Source of the DNA: a virus
Taxonomy: Duplodnaviria; Heunggongvirae; Uroviricota; Caudoviricetes
Strand: one strand, 5' to 3'
Length of the DNA stretch: 5,192 nucleotides
IMG/VR virus record: IMGVR_UViG_2778261461_000003
Positions within the stretch are counted from its first letter, which is position 1; every line of letters starts with the position of its first letter. Of this stretch, positions 1-5,192 are shown piece by piece. The notes below the pieces were generated by a model. It did not search any database. It saw only the letters and a list, made by a program, of their open reading frames with translations, and was not told the DNA's origin. The position numbers and the translations under genes were made by a program.

Positions 1-378
1 TTACTTCGAACAATCAGCATCCATCTCCAATCGGAGATCCAACACCATCAGCATGCCCTCCACTACGCCCTCAGCTTTCTGGAGCATCCTGCCAACCCAA
101 CAATCAGATCGCCCATGCTTACGTGCAAGCGCCATAAAAGTCATGCCGCCGACATAATAGTCCACCAATAAATCATGTAAATCGCTGTTGTTTTTTTTCA
201 GGCGAGCCATACATTCACAAATGATCATCGCGTCATCGTCACAGCATTGCGGACGAGATCTTACTTTTGAAGGAATTAATCCCTTAAAACCGGCGGCAAT
301 GGACGACCAGGTCACATCTTCATGATTATTAGCCGCCCATGCCCCCCAACGCTCAAGAACCATCTGAATATCACGCAT
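1..378 (-). CDS. quuQ: Phage late-gene antitermination protein Q (phage 82/21-type Q family)
   Basis: Minus-strand ORF with TAA stop at 3..1. Translation [26 protein letters not shown]...[22 protein letters not shown]...[12 protein letters not shown] is recognised from memory as the Q antiterminator of E. coli cryptic prophages (QuuD/QuuQ-like); this is not a database hit. The ORF-track start at 393 is a TTG; the first ATG is at 378..376 with GGAG 7 nt upstream, so 1..378 is preferred. The upstream gene's stop (398..396) lies 17 nt before this ATG, implying co-transcription. The symbol quuQ is chosen because of the YdfU-like neighbour; quuD is equally possible. Confidence 0.8.
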
Positions 379-395
379 CAACTTACTCCACAAAA

Positions 396-1445
396 TTAGG
401 CCAGCACACCAATTGCCAGCGCGCGATCGATAAATCGAAAAATCAGCTCCAGTTGGGAGCCATACTTCTCTTCAAATGCCACGGTATCCGTATGCAACTC
501 GTCGTGATGCTTTCTGCACAAAGGCAAAACAAAGAGATCATGTGCTTTGGTTCCCATTCCGCCCTGCCCGTGACCAATCAGATGATGCGGATCGTCGGCT
601 GGCATACCGCAGCAAGCACACGGCTGTGTCTTAACCCAGCGTGTGTATTTCTCCTTAACCCACCGGTGACGTTTAGGCAGCTTCATGAAAGATTCCGGAG
701 ACTCTGGATCAACGGTGATGCTTACCACCGTCTTTTCCTGTGATGGGTTTTGTTGCTGGTGGGCGTGAGGCAACGGTGCAAGATTTTTTGTGCGCTGTTT
801 CAATATGCTGGTGGCGGTCTGCTCTCCCGGTACGATGTCGCTTTCGCGGTACATCGAGCAGATTTTTTCCGCTGGTAATCCCAGCGAGCGACGTAATACC
901 GCTTCCGGTAGCGCGTCCGCCAGCTGATTGCGGACCGCCCACCAGGATAATTCAGCCAGAGATAATTCACGCTCCTGCGTACCGCTTATTGCGTGACCGA
1001 TGACGTCAATCATCCATGCTGACAGGTTTTGATGAGCAAGTTGCTCGAGTGATTCGGATGTCTGGTCACGCAGCTGGTTGTCGCAGTGCCAGCACAACAC
1101 CATTGCGCCGGTACCATATCGGTGAATAACGGTTTCGCTGTGATGATAATCGCCGTGTGGCCACTGGCAGGATTTAATATGGCGCAACAGCCAGTCAGAC
1201 AATGCACCAGCACCACCAGCAGCACGAATTACCCGTGCGTTACTGAAAAACGGCAGCAATGTTTTGTCTTCCACCAGCGGCTGGCGAACGGCAGGAACGA
1301 CCCCGGACGGCAGATTACGCATGCTTTTCGGTTCCGGCTCCACCAGTACCCGGGTATTGTGGAATACCGGCATGGATTCACGGCCCGGCTTAACGACCAC
1401 CAGCCCAAGTTCCGGTACCAGAACAGGTCGAAGTAATACCCGCAC
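396..1445 (-). CDS. ydfU: DUF968-type prophage protein with two HNH-like Cys/His clusters (YdfU-like), putative HNH-family nuclease
   Basis: 349-codon minus-strand ORF. GTG start at 1445..1443 preceded by GGAGG (complement of 1450..1454) with a 4-nt spacer; an alternative internal ATG at 1373..1371 has no clear SD. The C-terminal region has [44 protein letters not shown] (about nt 485..630), a CxxC...D-x-HH...LC-x-x-HH pattern typical of HNH/His-Me finger nucleases. A second similar cluster, [31 protein letters not shown], lies at about nt 1077..1169. Assignment to DUF968/YdfU is from memory. Confidence 0.75.
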
Positions 1446-1579
1446 GTTACCTCCAGATGCGTTGCTGGAATGTACGGGACGGACGCGGTGGGCGTTCGGA
1501 GTAAGGCAATCTGACTGAGATTATCCAGTGACGGTAGTCGAGACTAAGGGCTTTCTTAACCTCGTATCCGGAGCTTAAG
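1446..1579. promoter_or_regulatory. Divergent intergenic region between the minus-strand ydfU-Q unit and the plus-strand exonuclease-xis-int unit; presumed to hold divergent promoters
   Basis: 134-bp non-coding gap flanked by two outward-facing gene starts, each with its SD just inside the gap (GGAGG for the minus gene, GGAG at 1570..1573 for the plus gene). No convincing sigma70 -35/-10 pair could be placed by eye. A short palindrome TAGTC-ga-GACTA at 1536..1547 is the only operator-like symmetry seen. Confidence 0.3.
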
Positions 1580-3553
1580 TTGCACGCCATTGGGTGGGTT
1601 AAGCATAAATGTATTCCTGGTGCTAAATGGCCCGAAATTCAGGCAGAGATGCGCATCTGGAAAAAACGTCGCGAAGGTGAACGCAAGGAAACCGGAAAAT
1701 ACACGTCTGTTGTTGATCTCGCCCGCGCCAGAGCCAATCAACAGTACACTGAAAATTCAACAGGAAAAATCAGCCCGGTCATTGCTGCCATTCATCGCGA
1801 ATACAAGCAGACATGGAAAACACTGGATGACGAACTGGCCTACGCTCTCTGGCCTGGTGATGTGGATGCCGGAAACATTGACGGCAGCATCCATCGCTGG
1901 GCAAAAAAAGAAGTTATCGACAACGACCGCGAAGACTGGAAGCGTATCTCGGCATCAATGCGCAAACAGCCTGATGCCCTTCGCTACGACCGCCAGACTA
2001 TTTTTGGCCTTGTCCGTGAGCGTCCGATCGACATTCACAAAGATCCCATAGCACTGAACAAATATATCTGCGAATACCTGACGACAAAGGGCGTGTTTGA
2101 GTTTGAGAATGAAGAAACAGACCTGGGCACTGTTGATGTTCTCCAGTCATCAGAAACACAAACTGATGCAGTGGAAACTGAGGTATCTGATATCCCAAAA
2201 AATGAAACCGCGCCGGAAGCTGAACCATCTGTAGAGCGTGAGGGGCCGTTCTATTTCCTCTTCGCAGATAAGGACGGAGAAAAATACGGACGCGCAAACA
2301 AACTTTCTGGTCTGGATAAGGCACTGGCTGCTGGCGCCACTGAAATCACAAAAGAAGAATATTTTGCCCGAAAAAATGGCACATACACGGGCTTACCGCA
2401 AAATGTAGATACCGCTGAAGATTCAGAACAACCAGAGCCGATAAAAGTTACCGCTGACGAAGTAAACAAAATTATGCAGGCAGCCAATATCAGCCAGCCT
2501 GACGCCGATAAGTTGCTTGCTGCATCACGTGGTGAATTTGTTGAAGGGATTAGTGACCCGAATGATCCGAAATGGGTTAAGGGGATCCAGACCCGCGATT
2601 CTGTGAACCAGAACCAGCATGAATCGGAACGGAACTACCAAAAAGCGGAACAAAACAGCACAAATGCGTTACAAAACGAGCCAGAAACGAAACAGCCTGA
2701 ACCAGTGGCGCAACAGGAAGTGGAAAAAGTCTGCACCGCCTGCGGTCAGACCGGCGGCGGCAACTGCCCTGATTGTGGCGCGGTGATGGGCGACGCAACA
2801 TACCAAGAAACATTCGATGAAGAGTATCAGGTTGAAGTTCAGGAAGATGATCCGGAGGAAATGGAAGGCGCTGAACATCCACACAAGGAGAACACTGGCG
2901 GCAATCAGCATCACAATAGCGATAATGAAACTGGCGAGACGGCAGATCACTCAATTAAGGTGAACGGTCATCACGAAATCACATCCACCAGCAGGACGTG
3001 TGACCATCTAATGATCGACCTTGAAACCATGGGAAAAAATCCTGATGCCCCGATCATCTCAATAGGTGCAATATTTTTCGATCCGCAAACCGGAGATATG
3101 GGACCGGAATTTAGTAAGACTATCGATCTGGAAACTGCTGGCGGAGTCATTGATCGGGACACCATTAAATGGTGGCTTAAGCAATCACGCGAAGCGCAAT
3201 CTGCCATTATGACCGATGAAATCCCGTTAGATGATGCACTGTTACAATTACGGGAATTTATCGACGAAAACTCCGGTGAATTTTTTGTTCAGGTTTGGGG
3301 AAATGGAGCCAACTTCGACAACACGATTTTGCGCCGTTCATACGAACGGCAGGGGATCCCCTGCCCGTGGCGTTACTACAACGATCGCGATGTACGCACA
3401 ATCGTTGAGCTGGGGAAAGCCATAGACTTCGATGCCAGAACGGCTATTCCATTCGAAGGTGAGCGCCATAATGCACTTGATGACGCCCGTTACCAGGCAA
3501 AATACGTTTCAGTTATCTGGCAAAAACTGATCCCGAGTCAGGCTGATTCTTAA
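1580..3553 (+). CDS. Multidomain putative 3'-5' exonuclease: N-terminal domain of unknown function, long acidic linker, 4-Cys zinc ribbon, C-terminal DnaQ-like DEDDh exonuclease domain
   Basis: 657-codon ORF with TAA stop at 3551..3553. Start is ambiguous: TTG at 1580 (GGAG 1570..1573, 6-nt spacer) or first in-frame ATG at 1649 (weak AGG/GAG upstream). The C-terminal ~180 aa carry the three DEDDh motifs in order: MIDLETMG (nt 3011..3034), VWGNGANFD (nt 3293..3319) and HNALDDARY (nt 3467..3493). A CxxC-x7-CxxC zinc ribbon (CTACGQTGGGNCPDC) lies at nt 2732..2776. The region between about nt 2100 and 3000 is strongly acidic and E/Q/T/D-rich. No PD-(D/E)xK signature was seen, so it is not called a lambda Exo/RecE-type nuclease. 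Confidence 0.8.
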   Translation: MHAIGWVKHKCIPGAKWPEIQAEMRIWKKRREGERKETGKYTSVVDLARARANQQYTENSTGKISPVIAAIHREYKQTWKTLDDELAYALWPGDVDAGNIDGSIHRWAKKEVIDNDREDWKRISASMRKQPDALRYDRQTIFGLVRERPIDIHKDPIALNKYICEYLTTKGVFEFENEETDLGTVDVLQSSETQTDAVETEVSDIPKNETAPEAEPSVEREGPFYFLFADKDGEKYGRANKLSGLDKALAAGATEITKEEYFARKNGTYTGLPQNVDTAEDSEQPEPIKVTADEVNKIMQAANISQPDADKLLAASRGEFVEGISDPNDPKWVKGIQTRDSVNQNQHESERNYQKAEQNSTNALQNEPETKQPEPVAQQEVEKVCTACGQTGGGNCPDCGAVMGDATYQETFDEEYQVEVQEDDPEEMEGAEHPHKENTGGNQHHNSDNETGETADHSIKVNGHHEITSTSRTCDHLMIDLETMGKNPDAPIISIGAIFFDPQTGDMGPEFSKTIDLETAGGVIDRDTIKWWLKQSREAQSAIMTDEIPLDDALLQLREFIDENSGEFFVQVWGNGANFDNTILRRSYERQGIPCPWRYYNDRDVRTIVELGKAIDFDARTAIPFEGERHNALDDARYQAKYVSVIWQKLIPSQADS

Positions 3554-3564
3554 TGTTCAACTGT

Positions 3565-3596
3565 CGCCGGTTGTGACTGGTATTCTGCAACCGGCG
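3565..3596. repeat. Perfect 9-bp inverted repeat (CGCCGGTTG / CAACCGGCG) with a 14-nt loop; potential RNA stem-loop or protein-binding site between the exonuclease gene and xis
   Basis: Left arm 3565..3573 and right arm 3588..3596 are exact reverse complements. It sits 12 nt after the exonuclease stop and 30 nt before the xis start. It is followed by CTCGTCTGATG, which is not a clean U-tract, so it is not called an intrinsic terminator. Confidence 0.4.
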
Positions 3597-3625
3597 CTCG
3601 TCTGATGTAAGAGATAAAGAAATCG

Positions 3626-3877
3626 ATGAGCGAAGTAATCATGATTGTCTCTCCCGGCAAATGGGTATCCGAAGAGCAGTTAATTGCGCTGAAAGGAATA
3701 AAAAAAGGTACGTTAAAAAAGGCCCGGGAAAAATCGTTTATGGAAGGAAGGGAATATAAGCATGTCGCTCATGACGGTATGCCATGGGATAACAGTCCAT
3801 GCTTTTACAACCTGGAAGAAATTGATCGCTGGATTGAGCGCCAGGCATCAGCGAGACCAAGACGTCATCTTACTTGA
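3626..3877 (+). CDS. xis: Excisionase-like protein (prophage Xis; Rac XisR/YdaQ-like family)
   Basis: 83-codon ORF immediately upstream of and co-oriented with the integrase gene, with TGA stop at 3875..3877. Translation ...KWVSEEQLIALKGIKKGTLKKAREKSFMEGREYKHVAHDGMPWDNSPCFYNLEEIDRWIERQ... matches my recollection of the small excisionase-like family found next to IntR-type integrases. Start could be ATG 3626 or ATG 3641; both have weak purine-rich SDs. Confidence 0.7.
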   Translation: MSEVIMIVSPGKWVSEEQLIALKGIKKGTLKKAREKSFMEGREYKHVAHDGMPWDNSPCFYNLEEIDRWIERQASARPRRHLT

Positions 3878-3911
3878 CTAAAAGCCACACTAACTAATGA
3901 GAGAAGTTGAA

Positions 3912-5192
3912 ATGAAATATCCGACAGGCGTGGAAAACCATGGAGGGAAATTACGTATCTGGTTTGTTTATAAAGGCGTAAGAGTCAGGGAAAATCTGGG
4001 GGTTCCTGACACAGCAAAAAACAGGCGCGTTGCAGGTGAACTACGCTCCTCTGTTTGTTACGCAATAAAAACTGGTGTTTTCGACTATGCAAAACAGTTT
4101 CCCTCCTCACGCAATCTGGAAAAATTTGGTGAGGCCCGACAAGATTTAACCATAAAAGAACTGGCTGAAAAATTTCTGGCACTGAAAGAAACTGAAGTCG
4201 CCAAAACATCACTCAACACATACCGTGCCGTCATCAAAAATATCCTGAGCATAATCGGTGAAAAAAATCTTGCCTCATCGATTAATAAAGAAAAATTACT
4301 GGAGGTTCGTAAAGAGCTACTGACTGGATACCAGATCCCCAAAAGTAACTATATTGTTACACAACCAGGGAGATCGGCTGTAACTGTAAATAATTACATG
4401 ACAAATCTTAACGCCGTGTTCCAGTTTGGTGTTGATAACGGTTACCTGCCAGATAATCCGTTTAAGGGGATCTCGCCATTAAAGGAATCAAGAACCATTC
4501 CGGATCCTCTTTCGCGGGAGGAATTTATCCGTCTTATCGATGCGTGCAGAAATCAGCAAGCAAAAAATTTATGGTGTGTTTCTGTTTATACTGGCGTTCG
4601 CCCTGGTGAGCTGTGTGCACTTGGATGGGAGGACATAGATCTGAAAAATGGAACAATGATGATCAGGAGAAATTTAGCAAAAGACCGTTTCACGGTACCA
4701 AAAACACAGGCGGGAACCAATCGGGTCATTCATCTTATTAAGCCAGCAATCGACGCTCTCCGGAGTCAGATGACATTAACGAGACTGAGCAAAGAGCATA
4801 TCATTGATGTTCACCTCAGAGAGTATGGCAGAACAGAAAAACAAAAATGCACCTTTGTTTTTCAACCTGAAGTGTCAGCGAGAGTAAAAAATTATGGTGA
4901 CCATTTTACCGTTGACTCAATAAGGCAGATGTGGGACGCAGCGATAAAACGTGCCGGACTCCGCCATCGAAAATCATATCAGTCGAGACATACTTATGCC
5001 TGCTGGTCGCTGACAGCTGGTGCTAACCCGGCATTTATAGCAAACCAGATGGGCCATGCAGATGCGCAAATGGTATTTCAGGTATACGGAAAATGGATGT
5101 CTGAAAACAATAATGCACAGGTAGCTTTGTTAAATACACAGTTAAGCGAGTTTGCCCCAACCATGCCCCATAACGAAGCAATGAAAAATTAA
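3912..5192 (+). CDS. int: Tyrosine-type site-specific integrase (phage integrase, Rac IntR-like with arm-binding N-terminus)
   Basis: ORF with TAA stop at 5190..5192, the window end. The N-terminus MKYPTGVENHGGKLRIWFVYKGVRVRENLG resembles the arm-DNA-binding N-domain of IntR-family integrases. The catalytic-domain signatures are visible: R in GVRPGELCALGWEDIDL, R-H in SRHTYACW, H in QMGHADA and the nucleophile Y in FQVYGKW. Preferred start is ATG 3912 (GAGAGAAG purine-rich SD, 5-nt spacer); the ORF-track start at ATG 3897 has no SD. Confidence 0.9.
   Translation: MKYPTGVENHGGKLRIWFVYKGVRVRENLGVPDTAKNRRVAGELRSSVCYAIKTGVFDYAKQFPSSRNLEKFGEARQDLTIKELAEKFLALKETEVAKTSLNTYRAVIKNILSIIGEKNLASSINKEKLLEVRKELLTGYQIPKSNYIVTQPGRSAVTVNNYMTNLNAVFQFGVDNGYLPDNPFKGISPLKESRTIPDPLSREEFIRLIDACRNQQAKNLWCVSVYTGVRPGELCALGWEDIDLKNGTMMIRRNLAKDRFTVPKTQAGTNRVIHLIKPAIDALRSQMTLTRLSKEHIIDVHLREYGRTEKQKCTFVFQPEVSARVKNYGDHFTVDSIRQMWDAAIKRAGLRHRKSYQSRHTYACWSLTAGANPAFIANQMGHADAQMVFQVYGKWMSENNNAQVALLNTQLSEFAPTMPHNEAMKN

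Follow-up and report, generated by a model that had tools for sequence, protein, structure and literature searches.

The window, the whole 5,192-nt stretch of DNA analysed here, is, as judged from its genes and chromosomal matches, the end nearest int of a cryptic lambdoid E. coli prophage of the Qin type, situated between ydfJ' and rspB. We are nearly certain that it belongs to a defective Qin-type prophage at ydfJ in which one illegitimate recombination between two copies of GTATCCG removed about 7.4 kb, as counted on the intact phage HannyBb. An initial reading of the letters, made without database searches (the sequence-only reading), had noticed the gene order Q <- ydfU, exo -> xis -> int and the lack of an immunity or replication region between ydfU and exo. 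Both observations hold: the five genes are present in that order in the ORF listing of the window (Table 1), Pfam and PHROG concur on their families (Phage_antitermQ, DUF968/HNH, Rv2179c-like 3'-5' exonuclease, DUF1233 excisionase, and Arm-DNA-bind_2 plus Phage_integrase), and by ORFs, Pfam and PHROG the ydfU-exo interval contains no immunity or replication gene. An Rfam scan of the whole window returned zero matches.

Table 1. Features of the window, with supporting matches.
Feature	Position	Strand	Evidence or comment
Q-family late antiterminator, short type (125-130 aa), intact	1..393	-	PF06530 E=8e-51; PHROG 79
Q gene in strain C1			WP_001204787.1; RefSeq start at 378
ydfU, DUF968/HNH-endonuclease-like, nin-like region, intact 349 aa	396..1445	-	Pfam DUF968 E=9e-77; PHROG 96 full length
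3' remnant of 92-aa hypothetical gene hyp (PHROG 1212), last 40 codons + stop	1447..1570	-	left arm of deletion
Deletion junction, 7-bp microhomology GTATCCG	1564..1570	.	one copy per parental arm; one retained
Exonuclease pseudogene, 5'-truncated	1565..3553	+	codons 164-823 of 823-aa protein; C-terminal Rv2179c-like 3'-5' exonuclease domain
exo ORF as listed	1580..3553	+	657 aa, from TTG
Excisionase (xis), DUF1233 family, intact	3626..3877	+	PF06806 E=1.6e-31
Tyrosine integrase (int), intact 431 aa	3897..5192	+	Pfam Arm-DNA-bind_2 + Phage_integrase; RefSeq start 3912

The 134 bp at 1446-1579, which had been taken for a gap in place of the missing central genes, do mark where those genes are missing, but they are not an intergenic spacer: most of the interval belongs to the hyp remnant, and 1564-1579 is exo coding sequence. 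Aligned base by base, 1447-1570 corresponds to HannyBb 9995-10118, and its translation (GYEVKK...QQRIWR, then the stop) is the C-terminus of the 92-aa HannyBb protein, the gene for which is located upstream of ydfU in intact relatives. On the other side, native exo encodes 823 aa, with the PHROG 2082 profile spanning residues 1-822, and the remnant in the window is 99.5% identical to HannyBb exo from exo base 489 on. TTG 1580 is the first start-like codon past an upstream stop, and on this alignment the start it gives the exo ORF is an artefact of truncation. The RefSeq annotation of strain C1 likewise treats both junction remnants (hyp' and 'exo) as pseudogenes, hyp' being labelled 'missing N-terminus'. 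Two annotation traps are thus corrected, the false start of the truncated exo and a "spacer" that consists of gene remnants.

Three intact phages, HannyBb, PhiR42_1 and Tritos, match window 1564-5192, the exo(3')-xis-int segment, at 99.2-99.5% identity, and mEp460_ev081 does so at 94.8%; all four have the same attP core. Window 396-1570, comprising ydfU and the hyp remnant, matches HannyBb at 98.4% (98.4% also for the ydfU DNA against its homologue), in the same record, in the same orientation and collinear with the 1564-5192 arm (99.5%). In a three-way alignment the left reference agrees with the window through 1570 and the right reference from 1564, leaving the overlap GTATCCG. HannyBb carries this heptamer at 10112 and 17521, 7,409 bp apart, so that the interval deleted relative to this phage is 10119-17520. 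The join is clean, with no extra bases and one copy of GTATCCG kept, the form of a microhomology-mediated deletion. Such a clean join, with one copy of a 7-bp repeat and no IS or recombinase site, resembles the products of short-homology illegitimate recombination in E. coli. We found no IS at 1564-1570, and the junction therefore lacks the IS end of an IS-mediated adjacent deletion, in contrast to strains DAM and ANT, which have IS1 at a rem'/'exo junction (here and below, a slash separates the two sides of a join). One proposal of the sequence-only reading was that a cryptic prophage had undergone a large internal deletion, its junction lying somewhere within 1446-1579; the break maps to 1564-1570, and the collinear arms, 98-99.5% identical to the same intact phages, bear the proposal out.

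We propose that an intact ancestor at the ydfJ site, a relative of HannyBb, mEp460, Tritos and PhiR42_1, would have had one GTATCCG copy in the small gene upstream of ydfU and the other 488 bp inside exo. A single illegitimate-recombination event between the two copies would then have removed ~7.4 kb and left behind promoterless, back-to-back remnants of the pR and pL operons, hyp'-ydfU-Q on the left and 'exo-xis-int on the right. The join itself could have formed either by replication slippage or by break-and-rejoin, and the loss of toxic or lethal early genes may have favoured or permitted fixation.

The HannyBb interval corresponding to the loss includes the 5' part of the 92-aa gene, rem-like and MokW/hok-like genes, a 687-bp gene, a methyltransferase gene, a DUF977/ren-like gene, an O-like replication gene (12988-13953), cII-like and cro-like genes and the repressor gene (repressor/cro interval, 14439-15151), followed by six small pL-operon genes that are dicB-/ydfD-like by comparison with E. 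coli and mEp460 annotation, and the first 488 bp (163 codons) of exo. The replication gene and the immunity region of the intact phage both lie inside the deletion, and the window has neither. The size and exact content of the loss are estimates because the immunity region is mosaic in the HannyBb-type family; the ydfU-exo interval is ~0.85 kb longer in mEp460 than in HannyBb. We estimate the true loss at ~7-8.5 kb, the 7.4-kb figure being relative to HannyBb, from which the ancestor may have differed.

The same comparisons bear on two other accounts of the architecture. The first, that Q-ydfU and exo-xis-int came from different phages and were recombined without loss of the DNA between them, draws on the mosaicism of lambdoid phages and on the short Q with downstream lipocalin and YbgA genes, which are unlike the Q region of HannyBb. 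The sequence-only reading had offered such a join of modules of different origin beside a deletion. It finds no support here: 396-1570 and 1564-5192 both match one intact phage in native order and orientation, both flanking genes are cut in mid-codon sequence rather than at a gene boundary, and the mosaic boundary with HannyBb lies near 396, between Q and ydfU, away from the junction. We regard a mosaic join as very improbable.

The second account, that the window is a natively compact element (a phage satellite or minimal integrative module) or an assembly error, we consider practically excluded. The intactness of int, xis and both att cores would suit a compact element, but genes for replication, regulation and packaging redirection are absent: neither the window nor the 20-kb C1 element has a PICI-/P4-like replication module, regulators or packaging-redirection genes. 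The two genes that meet at the junction are each cut down from a longer gene, those beside int in the C1 element are fragments of helper-type phage genes, and the remainder of that element is a lambdoid prophage in decay, carrying a second deletion and an IS. Natively adjacent ydfU and exo, the case that would have spoken against a deletion, was looked for in intact relatives; these instead have 7-8 kb of rem/hok, replication, cII/cro/repressor and dicB-type genes between ydfU and the 823-aa exo, as well as complete morphogenesis genes, unlike the window prophage. In addition, the collapsed form is present in 3 of 5,426 genomes against 3,789 with native exo. Misassembly is ruled out by the identical junction in three independent complete assemblies, those of strains C1, TST3 and TBE6.

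E. coli strain C1 covers 100% of the window with one mismatch, and TST3 and TBE6 are identical except for an IS insertion. In C1, where the att and integration-site tests were made, outside the window, the matching DNA is the right end of a ~20-kb prophage that occupies the Qin site, with a truncated ydfJ on one side and rspB on the other; Qin integrates at the 5' end of ydfJ and ranges from 11 to 97 kb in size among strains (PMC6379469). Leftward from Q, the C1 prophage carries a lipocalin gene disrupted by IS3, ybgA, the lysis genes essD, rrrQ and rzpQ, cold-shock genes, terminase, a fusion of two truncated genes (portal and tail-fibre assembly) and pinQ; on the other side, int is followed by rspB. 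A 14-bp att core, T(G/T)GAAATCCATAA, is present at both prophage ends (5098-5111 and 25227-25240 of the C1 locus, L001), 35 bp downstream of int at the right end, and the phage-side flanks of the two cores are the two arms of the HannyBb attP. The sequence-only reading had pointed to these flanks as the places for lysis genes and an att site, and both are there. The retained genes are collinear with HannyBb and mEp460, so that the lambdoid order is kept with its middle deleted. The morphogenesis region beyond the portal/tail-fibre fusion is missing from C1, and the element has no complete set of head and tail genes.

That fusion marks a second large deletion of the C1 prophage, at L001 7577. 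The join between the tail-fibre assembly and portal fragments (tfa'/portal') reads GCAATA/CCCAG, against CACGTA/CCCAG in the portal parent, and is thus again at TA. We also noticed that the ydfU (DUF968) homologue of mEp460_ev081 (L139 998-2047) is mislabelled 'Phage antitermination protein Q'.

Qin of K-12 resembles the window prophage in its chromosomal site, in having ydfU, a Q gene, lysis genes, pinQ and an exo/xis/int end, and in being defective. K-12 Qin keeps the dicC/dicA immunity region, the dicBF operon and relBE/hokD, and its exonuclease (ydfE) and intQ are truncated by an IS. The window prophage is the reverse, having lost its entire central region but retained int, xis and most of exo. 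Its Q is also of a different, short type.

A 141-bp junction probe was fully matched in 3 of the 5,426 complete E. coli genomes, from C1 (Panama) and TST3 and TBE6 (Thailand), whereas native exo runs across the same site in 3,789. Because it is present in just three genomes of this set, the junction is, on these matches, real and recent. All three carriers also have the IS3 in the lipocalin gene beside Q. This region carries other deletions in at least a dozen further lineages. They include ydfU'/dicC in strain 26561, hyp'/ydfA' in 97.3, hokD.../dicB in LR-46, hyp'/'exo in 3PT, ydfU'/dicB region in 11A20CPO008, A65EC, Ecol_AZ147 and FCI56, ydfU'/'exo in wlxctx60 and FAHZZU6014, rem'/IS1/'exo in DAM and, in the CFS3292 type (90 genomes), DUF977'/'exo. 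The DUF977'/'exo, hyp'/'ydfA, hyp'/'exo and ydfU'/'exo alleles are like that of the window in affecting the same region through short microhomology, and unlike it in their endpoints and retained genes. As judged by the sets of retained sequence and by right-arm SNP haplotypes, most deletion alleles cannot be derived from each other: hyp 1537-1570, for instance, is retained in the window but missing in 97.3, which in turn retains dicB-ydfD-exo 5'. From these many alleles it follows that the collapsed architecture is a recurrent outcome of Qin decay and not peculiar to this contig. The present analysis thus goes beyond the sequence-only reading in three respects: exo itself is truncated, the gap is made of gene remnants, and the collapse has occurred many times independently, with other endpoints. 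The window itself is a rare allele of an already known process, the decay of Qin by internal deletion, and the feature as such is ordinary. In Ecol_AZ147 (L013 817-1140), a 106-bp tandem duplication in dicB accompanies the ydfU'/dicB-upstream deletion.

Two of these alleles touch the junction of the window directly. The 3PT hyp'/'exo deletion uses the same hyp site, and the CFS3292-type DUF977'/'exo deletion ends at exactly the same exo base, through a 10-bp repeat, GTATCCGGAG (L006 8999-9018 and 89 other genomes). The second coincidence raises an alternative to a single event, in which the widespread DUF977'/'exo deletion came first and a second deletion then joined hyp to the older junction. 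Besides the shared exo copy with its 10-bp microhomology, this two-step route is favoured by the likeness of the hyp site to the DUF977'/'exo junction: they share TAACC(T)CGTATCCG, 13 of 14 bases with one indel, more than hyp shares with native exo. However, the left arm of the sampled DUF977'/'exo genome is a different allele, 91.7% identical, with a hyp that lacks GTATCCG; no two-step intermediate with a HannyBb-like left arm was found; and sister lineages with the same short-Q/ydfU arm still have native exo. The two-step route would yield the same sequence, so a one-step origin of the junction is not proven by the sequence itself, but we consider two steps unlikely and prefer the single deletion.

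Because two different deletions use exactly the same exo base, we catalogued junctions of contiguous deletions in the ydfU-exo region at 15 E. coli genome, 120 IMG/VR and 98 metagenome loci, retrieved with an xis 36-mer (L003-L237) and placed on a HannyBb frame (L002, 9033-19048). At 22-23 of the 27 distinct junction types, the dinucleotide TA is common to both parents at the crossover, against 2.6 expected as computed from the microhomology lengths (Poisson-binomial p 3e-23); the junction of the window, at 1564-1570, is one of these. TA-type junctions have 44 endpoints, and these occupy just 28 of 497 TA sites against an expectation of 42; a value as low as 28 was reached in fewer than 1 in 20,000 simulations. 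Position 16479 of HannyBb, which lies upstream of the dicB-like gene, is paired with five or more others, and 14541, 14176 and 10083 with three each; these four, together with 17522, 17798 and 15313, are reused in new pairings. The flanks of used sites set them apart from other TA sites: C stands at -4 in 52% against 23%, and G at -2/-1, C at +2/+3 and G at +4 are also enriched, giving the approximate form C-N-G-G-TA-N-C-C-G.

The heptamer GTATCCG is the commonest form among used sites. Five copies are present in the region, with a sixth in ydfU alleles like that of the window, all on one strand, and at least five serve as endpoints. The five copies in the 10.9-kb HannyBb early region compare with 0.4 expected, but 58 other 7-mers are equally frequent, and copy number alone is thus insufficient to explain the reuse. 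Within the window, GTATCCG is found on the + strand at 484-490, 1564-1570 and 3665-3671 and nowhere on the - strand. The most reused endpoint, at 16479, lies directly 5' of two inverted repeats, ACGTTAATTGTTAAC TGGTTAACGT and then CCTGGAGGCACCAGG (L002 16479-16530). Secondary structure may contribute to this hot spot.

We conclude that the TA and hot-spot regularity is real, and it might interest specialists; we found no earlier description of such a signature for prophage decay in the literature. Unlike ordinary short-homology recombination, crossovers in this prophage family are almost always at TA, the sites recur and the length of the homology fails to predict them. If specific TA sites do steer where deletions occur, the domestication of prophages would be in part deterministic.

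These features raise the possibility that the join in the window is the product of sequence-directed break-and-rejoin at a limited set of TA-centred sites, and not of random replication slippage, with a type IA topoisomerase, a type II topoisomerase or a phage nuclease as candidate agents. We put the chances of this at about even. In its favour are the shared TA at most junction types, the crowding of endpoints onto few sites, with at least five partners at 16479, and the flank bias of the used sites. Part of the site reuse may, however, reflect secondary deletions from an older junction, and of the three late-region junctions two used ordinary CCTTC or CCTGCA microhomology.

Known enzymes offer partial parallels. 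In vivo, E. coli topoisomerase I cuts at TA dinucleotides that have a conserved C four nucleotides before them (PMC9352719), and a type IA topoisomerase could act by strand transfer at TA with an upstream C; topA point mutants show raised deletion and duplication rates (PMC6954433). The deletion sites share with those of topoisomerase I the TA where the break occurs and a preference for C four positions ahead of it. The topoisomerase I motif is, however, AT-rich (TCNTTA/T), with the C four nucleotides before the T/A cut within TA, whereas the deletion sites are GC-rich and have the C four nucleotides before the T. For gyrase, the central part of the consensus, CGGCGGTAT/GGGG/ATACCGCCG (PMC6379681 supplement), holds CGGTAT and ATACCG, yet placing the junction TA in that cleavage register fails to give the observed products, and we rejected it. 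The link to any of these enzymes rests on motif resemblance.

Other candidates were also set aside. The published site of the PinQ invertase, TTCTCCCAAACCAA (PMC12529663), is by eye unlike the junction sites, which argues against action of PinQ on quasi-sites. Nor did the DNA beside pin in HannyBb show clear inverted-repeat crossover sites. Deletions promoted by Int at secondary att sites would have one end at att; no deletion ends there, and by eye the resemblance to the att core is limited to ATCC. Rpn nucleases are reported to lack sequence specificity.

A broader version of break-and-rejoin holds that the early-region collapse in Qin/HannyBb-type prophages as a whole is sequence-directed at a few TA hot spots, GTATCCG being the hottest, with a topoisomerase or an early nuclease such as the HNH-like YdfU as the agent. 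We advance this broader version tentatively, at somewhat less than even chances. Such an agent may act during abortive induction, the survivors being cells rid of the lethal early genes.

Whatever the route to the junction, the repressor and the interval expected to hold pL and pR are deleted, and a promoter scan of the window finds no sigma-70-like site on either strand near 1400-1700. Because of that deletion, Q, xis and int are probably silent, or else dependent on read-through, fortuitous transcription or other prophages; the earlier suggestion that control of Q and of int/xis was lost is thus a reasonable one. Judging from its gene content, the element would be locked in the chromosome, although int, xis and both att cores are intact and, given a supply of the proteins, it might still be able to excise. 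Relative to the plaque-forming phage, int and xis carry very few substitutions (3626-5192 is ~99.5% identical to HannyBb); xis has a single DNA difference, at 3724, with the protein unchanged over the 60 residues compared. An element can thus retain int, xis and att sites in intact form after losing all control circuitry, which is relevant to the scoring of prophage predictions.

The truncated exo has further features of its own. GGAG lies 6 nt upstream of TTG 1580 (window 1570-1582), within native exo coding sequence. Because two different deletions end just upstream of this GGAG-N6-TTG, we considered whether a functional shorter exonuclease is made from it. In TST3 (L007 3825-5137), and likewise in TBE6, an IS3-family element interrupts exo at a point corresponding to window ~2825. 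An insertion in two of the three carriers argues for a dispensable remnant, and we rejected a functional short exonuclease; reuse of the GTATCCG site better explains the shared endpoint. From its position, the GGAG is a plausible ribosome-binding site by accident only, and nothing in the DNA points to its use.

Within the same gene, GTTTGA at 2095-2100 is repeated at 2101-2106, an in-frame 6-bp tandem duplication that is also present in TST3, which has the same junction, and missing from the nine other copies compared; on this distribution it is lineage-specific. Finally, int has C instead of G at window 4449, changing Ala185 to Pro (counted from ATG 3897), and among the strains compared only TST3 and 11A20CPO008 (L009) also carry this substitution.
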